Shown here piece by piece: positions 26,880 through 26,940 of a stretch of 64,000 bases of DNA (within the stretch, counting starts at the first letter, position 1; each line of letters opens with the position of its first letter). Both the position numbers and the translations under genes were made by a program. The DNA comes from Clostridiales bacterium (lineage in GTDB: Bacteria; Bacillota; Clostridia; TANB77; CAG-508). The notes under the pieces were generated by a model. The model was given only the letters and a program-made list of their open reading frames with translations. It was not told where the DNA came from and searched no databases. The stretch lies in the NCBI GenBank assembly GCA_003534295.1, contig DPDV01000008.1, forward strand, positions 146,132 through 210,131, read 5' to 3'.

Positions 26880-26940
26880 TGTAGGGGCGAACTTGTTCCC
26901 CCTCGCTTCCGGAGGACGGGCGATTTTAATCGCCCCTACA
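26880..26940. repeat. GC-rich palindromic intergenic element, longest copy of a 3-copy family
   Basis: Outer 11-bp perfect stem TGTAGGGGCGA (26880-26890) / TCGCCCCTACA (26930-26940). It encloses GGGCGATTTTAATCGCCC. The element is about 60% GC in a genome of less than 30% GC. Confidence 0.7.

Follow-up and report, generated by a model that had tools for sequence, protein, structure and literature searches.

GTAG-tagged, probably REP-type hairpin repeats in an AT-rich gut Clostridiales genome, and a REPtron-like gene arrangement in its relatives

The window analysed here is a 64,000-nt stretch with 27.8% GC from the genome of a Clostridiales bacterium (GenBank assembly GCA_003534295.1, contig DPDV01000008.1, positions 146,132 to 210,131 of the forward strand), and all unit counts given for it refer to its full length. 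It contains GC-rich palindromes at three sites which are very probably genuine copies of a mobile hairpin repeat, more specifically of GTAG-tagged repetitive extragenic palindromic (REP) elements. REPs are spread by a dedicated transposase, the REP-associated tyrosine transposase (RAYT), and are best known from Escherichia coli and Pseudomonas. Members of the GTAG REP super-family are recognised by a short GC-rich hairpin that carries a GTAG tag at its foot (PMC3733652, PMC2817692). The original prediction, made from the nucleotide sequence, had described the palindromes either as REP-like or similar to miniature inverted-repeat transposable elements (MITEs), or as RNA-structural modules. The first of these descriptions is supported by the GTAG tag, the hairpin size, the extragenic dispersal, the inverted doublets, a REP-flanked gene of RAYT type and the insertion of copy 2.

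Repeat units in the window

The core GGCGATTWWAATCGCCCCTA matches the + strand of the window at 26919-26938 and 62488-62507 (0 mismatches each) and at 33252-33271 (1 mismatch), and none of 100 dinucleotide shuffles contained a match. A repeat finder placed the sites at 26919, 33252 and 62488 in a single family (D10). All three sites named in the original prediction are thus present, all are intergenic and all share one orientation, as had been stated. The count of three copies holds for the sites but not for the units, which number four. A mismatch-tolerant search and a generic scan for GTAG plus a hairpin revealed the fourth: a degenerate, inverted family member forms the left part of copy 1 (26880-26906), such that two of the units make up an inverted doublet at 26880-26940. 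A profile hidden Markov model built from 110 family members found no copy in the window beyond these four units, which are arranged as follows.

26880..26906, + strand: REP unit 1a, left arm of the doublet; GTAG-first TGTAGGGGCGAACTTGTTCCCCCTCGC; DNA hairpin -5.0 kcal/mol
26907..26916, no strand: central spacer of the doublet, TTCCGGAGGA; diverged from the CTTCGAAGAA spacer of doublets in related genomes
26917..26940, - strand: REP unit 1b, right arm of the doublet; reads TGTAGGGGCGATTAAAATCGCCCG; DNA hairpin -7.7 kcal/mol
33242..33275, - strand: REP unit 2 with a short 3' tail, an insertion of about 32-34 nt in the stp-prkC spacer; DNA hairpin -4.6 kcal/mol
62466..62519, - strand: REP unit 3 with the flanks of an extended subfamily; DNA hairpin -7.7 kcal/mol

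Read on the minus strand (TGTAGGGGCGATTTTAATCGCCCGC), the unit is about 25 nt long and consists of TGTAG, a 7-bp GC-rich stem GGGCGAT/ATCGCCC (5 GC pairs) around a 4-nt loop, and then GC. The consensus hairpin has a folding energy of -7.7 kcal/mol as DNA (z = -3.6), which was equalled by 0 of 200 shuffles. The GC content is 59% for the 61-nt composite at copy 1 and 50-54% for single units, in agreement with the earlier estimate of about 60% in a genome of less than 30% GC.

Three of the four units are damaged, and the sole fully intact unit is 1b. Unit 1a is a degenerate loop variant whose 3' stem arm is one base short. The REP proper of unit 2 (33250-33273; TGTAGGGGCGATTTTAATCGTCGC on the - strand, with the tail TGGATAAT) has two stem mismatches and had rightly been called degenerate. 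To this must be added that unit 3 is also mutated: its REP proper (62485-62509; TATAGGGGCGATTTTAATCGCCCGC on the - strand) retains an intact stem, and its tag is changed from GTAG to ATAG, while the tag is intact in units 1a, 1b and 2. Unit 3 gives a profile match at 62468-62517 with an E value of 4.5e-14.

In the approximately 74 kb of the source genome examined there are five units, the four in the window and one near valS. This fifth copy lies in the same species at 19311-19333 of L156 (L numbers denote the loci fetched for comparison), about 7.4 kb before window position 1 and about 40 nt upstream of valS. Together with its flanks (L156 19280-19372) it is a full-length member of the extended subfamily of about 75 nt and has one stem mismatch. 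Thus, the family continues beyond the window in the source genome.

The family in related genomes

An exact 20-mer pattern was scanned over one genome per GTDB species, and the family counts that follow rest on the matches listed. None of the listed family loci comes from the species of the window, and their best nucleotide identity to the window is about 80%. Among the matches listed, the exact 20-mer occurs in more than 116 genome stretches, most of them from metagenome-assembled genomes (MAGs) of uncultured Clostridia with 25-31% GC, whose hosts include human, goat, rabbit and buffalo, in all of which the source is the gut. Each of these genomes has anything from several copies to more than 16, all counts being lower bounds: BRZ_BL__bin74 contains no fewer than 16 exact copies, and HGM13690 and RUG13298 no fewer than 11 each. 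By crude calls of open reading frames (ORFs), 92 of 98 scorable copies are intergenic, and a copy is typically found a few tens of nt past the upstream stop codon.

Alignment of 120 occurrences from low-GC genomes reveals an oriented, asymmetric element in which (G)CG-GGCGATTAAAATCGCC-CCTACA is nearly invariant. Among 109 unique members, information content is high only across (G)CGGGCGATTAAAATCGCCCCTACA; the outermost base of the GTAG tag (C on the other strand) still carries 2.5 bits, and the nearly uninformative flanks reach background within a few bases. An extended subfamily has about 25 nt of conserved flank on each side, AAAGTAATTTATGAAAAAA-REP-yyCTTCGAAGAAATTACTTAAAA. Copy 3 and the valS copy are members, the flanks of copy 3 aligning with those in L117, L122, L020, L073 and L156. 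A reading of these flanks as the duplicated 5' untranslated region (UTR) of one gene family, suggested by the paralogues around copy 3, was rejected because that paralogue family is absent from the other loci with the extended element.

Head-to-tail arrays of two to at least four copies, with a 73-79-nt unit made up of the REP and its conserved flanks, were observed directly upstream of a gene start in the MAG BRZ_BL__bin74. Tandem arrays are located at:

L117, 6800-7000
L122, approximately 4900-5200

These two arrays are not CRISPR (clustered regularly interspaced short palindromic repeat) loci because the segments between the REPs, which would be the spacers, are themselves repeated.

Could the palindromes instead be operator sites of a dimeric regulator or another host protein, recurring by way of shared promoters? 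The near-perfect palindrome, its strong conservation and the many copies upstream of genes would be expected of such sites. However, the element is asymmetric and oriented, with CG on one side and CCTACA on the other, and it is mostly found after stop codons and between convergent genes. Tandem arrays and the inverted doublets described below are equally foreign to operators, the repeats bracket a transposase gene, and they are absent from the orthologous promoters of sister species. The operator explanation is accordingly considered extremely improbable, and the repeats are treated in what follows as GTAG-tagged REPs.

The inverted doublet at copy 1

Units 1a and 1b fold jointly into a 61-nt hairpin. 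The 11-bp outer stem TGTAGGGGCGA/TCGCCCCTACA reported in the original prediction is real and represents the minimum-energy fold of the 61 nt (-30.7 kcal/mol as RNA and -15.5 as DNA). The competing, mutually exclusive folds also reported there are simply the consequence of two adjacent inverted REPs and do not stand as evidence for an RNA module. In its architecture, copy 1 is an inverted doublet resembling a REP doublet forming a hairpin (REPIN).

Comparable doublets are found among the relatives, where an inverted partner lies no more than 70 nt away from 12 out of 118 units. The two-variant type of doublet seen at copy 1 is among them. Several match the layout of copy 1, GTAG-REP(loop variant)-yGCTTCGAAGAA-REP-CTAC, and intact versions of the left arm (GTAGGGGCGAACTTGTTCGCCCG) are present in the doublets of L052 and L015. 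A CTTCGAAG-like flank accompanies 35 of the 118 family members and occupies the doublet centre in 5 of 12. Because the doublets of relatives reproduce the architecture of copy 1, the CTTC(C)G(G)A(G)G flank that had been noticed as common to copies 1 and 3 is best described as the doublet spacer.

Comparison between strains, which the original prediction had proposed, revealed polymorphism at copy 1; the difference between species at copy 2 is described in the next section. At copy 1, three of the six strains compared (L134, L136 and L137) lack 33 nt from the interior of the doublet, the lost segment lying between direct TCGCCC repeats, an instability typical of hairpin doublets. These strains retain a 28-nt perfect palindrome, TGTAGGGGCGATTAAAATCGCCCCTACA. 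The doublet is dispensable, since this plain palindrome is all that the three strains keep after the deletion.

Insertion of copy 2 between stp and prkC

Copy 2 lies in the spacer between stp and prkC (gene names at copies 1-3 are taken from Pfam labels), and this spacer exists with and without the repeat. In the window and in L151, whose Stp is 95% identical, the spacer contains the REP and measures 57 nt; without the REP, it is 25 nt long in L150 (84% Stp identity) and 12 nt long in L152 and L153 (74%). The insertion of about 32 nt is flanked by a conserved stop-codon context and by the prkC ribosome-binding site (RBS) GAGGAGAG, directly 5' of which it ends. From these filled and empty spacers, copy 2 is demonstrably an insertion of a REP at a new intergenic site, one that widened a normally tight stp-prkC junction. 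L151 has the same two stem mutations as copy 2 of the window, with the hairpin down to -4.6 kcal/mol; because a relative at 95% Stp identity shares these mutations, the insertion is old. In syntenic regions of other genera, REPs occupy different intergenic sites; the site corresponding to copy 1 is occupied by a REP in one genome.

A role in the regulation of prkC had been raised in the original prediction. Nothing indicates a dedicated role of this kind: the insertion left the RBS directly 3' of it intact, and the stem of the repeat has since decayed.

A RAYT-like gene bracketed by the repeat

A six-frame ORF search of the fetched loci, for which an E. coli RAYT sequence was the query and served as a lead only, singled out the ORF L018:1549-2028. 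The gene at L018:1582-2028 encodes a 149-aa protein that matches Pfam Y1_Tnp with 29.8 bits (cut-off 23). Its best NCBIfam model is the REP-associated tyrosine transposase (NF047646), with 64 bits versus 21.7 bits for the IS200 model (IS200 cut-off 55), and its only significant match in the PDB is E. coli TnpA_REP (4ER8; E 1.9e-5). The aligned motifs of the L018 protein and 4ER8 comprise the HUH motif (HIHILL), WQxxF(W/Y)EHxIRN and the catalytic YxxxN.

On either side of this gene lies an exact copy of the REP of the window, the two being inverted relative to each other with GTAG facing outward. The databases hold 1564 homologues of its product, some of which were named 'REP element-mobilizing transposase RayT' by the Joint Genome Institute (JGI), and four homologues with 71-83% identity to the L018 protein were located on contigs. 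All five genes (about 150 aa) are bracketed by two inverted GTAGGGGCGATTTTAATCGCCCG units, exact or with one mismatch; the first precedes the ATG by 16-72 nt, and the second follows the stop codon at 2-10 nt. Each homologue occupies one conserved locus per species, and together the five genes span at least three different neighbourhoods. This arrangement matches the REPtron as described for RAYTs (PMC6006769), and the layout in these related genomes is that of a classic REPtron.

Alternatively, the repeats might be miniature derivatives of ordinary autonomous IS200/IS605 elements, similar to MITEs or to palindrome-associated transposable elements (PATEs), and lie outside the REP-RAYT systems. 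The two classes share the HUH-Y1 core, hairpin ends, the expected single-strand mechanism and a strand bias. Moreover, the flanked gene matches the Pfam family Y1_Tnp, 'Transposase IS200 like', and falls under the curated RAYT cut-off, the unit of gene plus repeats is found in differing neighbourhoods between species, and the inverted repeats at L018 run for about 60 nt. Set against this, the RAYT model gives three times the IS200 score, and the only significant PDB match is TnpA_REP and not the TnpA of IS608 or ISDra2. The gene is single-copy, at one conserved locus per species without identical extra copies, and has no adjacent tnpB. IS200/IS605 elements have distinct left and right subterminal hairpins (PMC6006769), whereas here both ends are identical inverted GTAG-tagged copies. 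A derivation from ordinary IS200/IS605 elements is thus judged highly unlikely, and the REP-RAYT assignment is preferred.

A second candidate partner was examined and set aside. L041 encodes on its - strand (6945-7715) a 257-aa Y1_Tnp protein with the canonical motif YIHRNPEKAG, a C-terminal HTH-like (helix-turn-helix) extension and 63.5 bits for the NCBIfam RAYT model; its flanks contain GTCACCGGTACCGGAGAT-type repeats unrelated to the REP studied here. It was rejected as a partner because of its distance of 2 kb from the REP and because the repeats on its flanks are of an unrelated GGTACCGGAGAT type. As for the RAYT genes themselves, many of them are located on short contigs, and the REPs that bracket them may be one reason for this. 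At L123 2100-2180, adjoining a RAYT locus, there are GTAG-headed hairpins with other stems, GTAGGGGCGGGCCTTGTGTCCGACCG and GTAGGGGGTCGGCGTCCTCGACGACCCGC, a sequence pattern which suggests several REP variants per genome.

Orientation, proposed mechanism and the possibility of an RNA role

The repeat is not oriented at random. Between co-directional genes, the GTAG-first strand is the mRNA sense strand in 53 cases versus 11, and across loci it is the G-rich strand in 79 cases versus 20. In the window, the GC skew of the + strand is -0.18 to -0.30 and the AT skew is also strongly negative, uniformly so and including the mixed-orientation region at 24-32 kb. The negative skew of the + strand throughout indicates that the - strand is the leading strand, and its uniformity that the whole window lies on one replichore. 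The three forward-oriented units accordingly read GTAG-first on the - strand, which is both the leading and the gene-sense strand.

By analogy with E. coli TnpA_REP and the biochemistry of IS200/IS605, these REPs would be non-autonomous elements handled as single-stranded DNA hairpins. The enzyme would be a dedicated single-copy HUH-Y1 protein, RAYT/TnpA_REP, recognising the hairpin plus the 5' GTAG tag. That the REP has inserted into new intergenic sites is shown by the comparisons above, copy 2 being one case. The strand bias would fit action on one exposed single strand, the lagging-strand template, as in the IS200/IS605 relatives.

A further possibility is that the hairpins act at the RNA level, for instance as intrinsic terminators, as sites of processing or stabilisation, or in the control of translation (for example of prkC), and that they were selected and not transposed. 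Like Rho-independent terminators, the repeats are short GC-rich intergenic hairpins with a stable stem, often followed by T-rich sequence on one strand: at least 5 T are found in the 8 nt after CTACA (+ strand) in 51% of cases versus 26% in an antisense intergenic background. The + strand of copy 3 was flagged as terminator-like, an RBS follows many copies at a distance of 20-40 nt, and copies 2 and 3 are necessarily transcribed within co-directional gene pairs.

However, the terminator-like orientation is mostly antisense to the flanking genes, as the 53 versus 11 co-directional pairs indicate, and the 5 nt of CTACA separate the stem from the T-run. The terminator scan flagged copies 1 and 2 on neither strand and copy 3 only antisense to both of its neighbours, and a strong, apparently bidirectional terminator already serves rpsI at 26800-26829, ahead of copy 1. 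The reading as a canonical terminator was rejected because of the orientation and of the promoter and terminator scans, the T-run enrichment being only about two-fold. Rfam, a comparison also proposed with the original prediction, gave no match anywhere in the window at gathering thresholds, and only far sub-threshold hits for 26780-27000 at E<=1. Unlike in terminators, the sequence beyond mere pairing is invariant across unrelated loci and genera, a pattern more in keeping with a DNA site read by a protein than with an RNA fold, and it brackets a transposase gene. The genes downstream of the repeats are mutually unrelated, and copy 2 is absent in sister species that keep the same RBS; its stem has decayed where it is present. 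The alternative description of the palindromes as RNA-structural or regulatory modules finds no support in Rfam or in the dispensable doublet of copy 1, and a selected RNA function is regarded as very unlikely.

As REPs, the window copies are fixed elements of some age, decayed in part, and probably near-neutral passengers within operon or 3' UTR transcripts. They would have at most REP-like side effects, such as a hairpin at an RNA 3' end or for RNA stability, or a looser stp-prkC coupling.

Several observations nevertheless weigh against the assignment to REP-RAYT systems. The strand bias is confounded with gene direction, there being only 3 discordant cases, and may stem from replication or from transcription. 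Doublets are a minority, most units being singlets. The L018 protein, at 64 bits for NF047646, scores under the curated cut-off of 80, and its RAYT-like tyrosine motif is Y---N(V/I) versus the class-2 consensus Y---NP. No RAYT was found in the 64-kb window (phmmer with the E. coli RAYT and tblastn with the L018 RAYT) or in the approximately 10 kb examined before its start, and none of the best 120 of the 1564 RAYT homologues lies on the contigs of more than 1 Mb from the source species. With three of four window units damaged, the population in the source genome may be a relic. Thus, the REPs of the source genome may be left over from a lost RAYT or may be served by a more divergent one. Neighbours of the RAYT loci of relatives were not found in the window.

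Genomic context of the copies

Contigs from human-gut metagenomes match the window with 100% identity, and a contig of GCA_025992345.1 does so with 99.8%. Copy 1 lies between the convergent rplM-rpsI operon (end 26774) and mreB (26996-28003, - strand). Copy 2 lies between stp, which encodes a PP2C phosphatase (33285-34007, - strand), and prkC (31260-33227, - strand), and copy 3 between two tandem paralogues, 62579-63952 and 61058-62440, both on the - strand. Copy 2 is 22 nt away from the start codon of prkC (ATG at 33227), and copy 3 is 44 nt away from the ATG at 62440, matching the 23 and 45 nt given in the original prediction.

The gap between rpsI and the doublet contains a 12-bp hairpin flanked on each side by a T-run (26800-26829; AACCTCAGAAGTTTCAATACTTCCGAGGTTTTTT), which by its sequence looks like the actual terminator, acting in both directions, for the rpsI and mreB transcripts that converge there. 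The paralogues around copy 3 (61058-62440 and 62579-63952) encode proteins of 460 and 456/457 aa with 44-46% mutual identity; both have an N-terminal hydrophobic segment and no recorded Pfam hit, and the REP lies within their 138-nt spacer. Directly past window position 64000 there is a 23S-5S rRNA operon (L154 1-2100), at which many assemblies of the species, of about 230 kb, end.

Two other differences were observed within the species. In L005 (1-1001, versus window positions of about 35100-36230), an rve-type integrase/transposase pair replaces MurT/GatD upstream of rlmN, and in L136 (1-1079, versus about 28300-29500), a 376-aa HTH_38 protein replaces rpmB/nth upstream of mreB. These are apparently strain-level rearrangements within the source species.

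Relation to known systems and wider distribution

The closest counterparts of the repeats are the GTAG REP, bacterial interspersed mosaic element (BIME) and REPIN-RAYT systems, namely the E. coli REPtron, the Pseudomonas fluorescens REPIN-RAYT and the GTAG families of Di Nocera et al. 2013 (PMC3733652) and Nunvar et al. 2010 (PMC2817692), with which they share the 5' GTAG and a GC-rich imperfect palindrome of 20-25 nt. Further common features are the extragenic multi-copy dispersal (here in relatives), the inverted doublets and a single-copy HUH-Y1 gene between inverted REPs whose closest solved structure is E. coli TnpA_REP. The differences lie in the hosts, which are AT-rich (about 28% GC), small-genome, uncultured gut Clostridia, and in a REP core that is identical across many genera and not species-specific. 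In addition, the RAYT is short (about 150 aa), has Y---N(V/I) in place of Y---NP and scores below the NCBIfam cut-off, and the REPs are mostly singlets, one subfamily being extended at both ends by some 25 nt of conserved sequence.

The REP surveys consulted record GTAG REPs only in Proteobacteria, Cyanobacteria, Chloroflexi and the Planctomycetes-Verrucomicrobia-Chlamydiae (PVC) group, and they mention Clostridia in passing as hosts of 'Group 1' RAYTs without abundant REPs. The string GTAGGGGCGA was not found in the REP literature searched. The repeats of the window thus extend the known REP class and are not a new kind of element.

The REP core was also observed outside AT-rich Clostridia. 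It occurs in Methylococcales (L016, L046, L047, L054, L062, L080 and L088), in Chromatiales and others (L029, L057, L059, L075, L085 and L087), where the Chromatiales form is a perfect palindrome with a TTTAAA centre, and in Clostridia MAGs with 60% GC (L017, L035, L037 and L051), which have related perfect palindromes. Doublets of the form TGTAGGGGCGAATTTATTCGCCC-nn-GGGCGATTAAAATCGCCCCTACA in Methylomonas and Methylobacter mirror the two-variant doublet of copy 1. No RAYT gene was found in the 8-kb blocks around the core in these genomes outside AT-rich Clostridia.

It is conceivable, although on balance doubtful, that a single REP-RAYT specificity class, including the two-variant doublet (GTAGGGGCGAAnTTnTTCGCCC + GGGCGATTAAAATCGCCCCTAC), is common to gut Clostridia and Gammaproteobacteria (Methylococcales). 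The accepted view of REPIN-RAYT systems is that they are specific to a lineage and passed on strictly by vertical inheritance. A shared class, if true, would mean either that the system crossed between phyla or that it was conserved nearly unchanged over an extremely long time. It would also mean that such a system thrives in small Firmicutes genomes of 28% GC, from which, to our knowledge, REPIN-RAYT systems have not been described.

Among domesticated transposases that keep up a population of short repeats, those of the REP/REPIN-RAYT systems have been studied best, and the systems have been characterised almost only in Proteobacteria. A clear REPtron together with dispersed REPs in the AT-rich, reduced genomes of gut Clostridia widens this host range, and the identity of the core across genera bears on the evolution of RAYT-REP specificity. 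The REP is also an easily recognised marker in these genomes, because a hairpin of 50-60% GC contrasts with DNA of 28% GC. In the annotation of such MAGs, these hairpins would best be labelled as REPs and not as terminators, small RNAs or riboswitch candidates.

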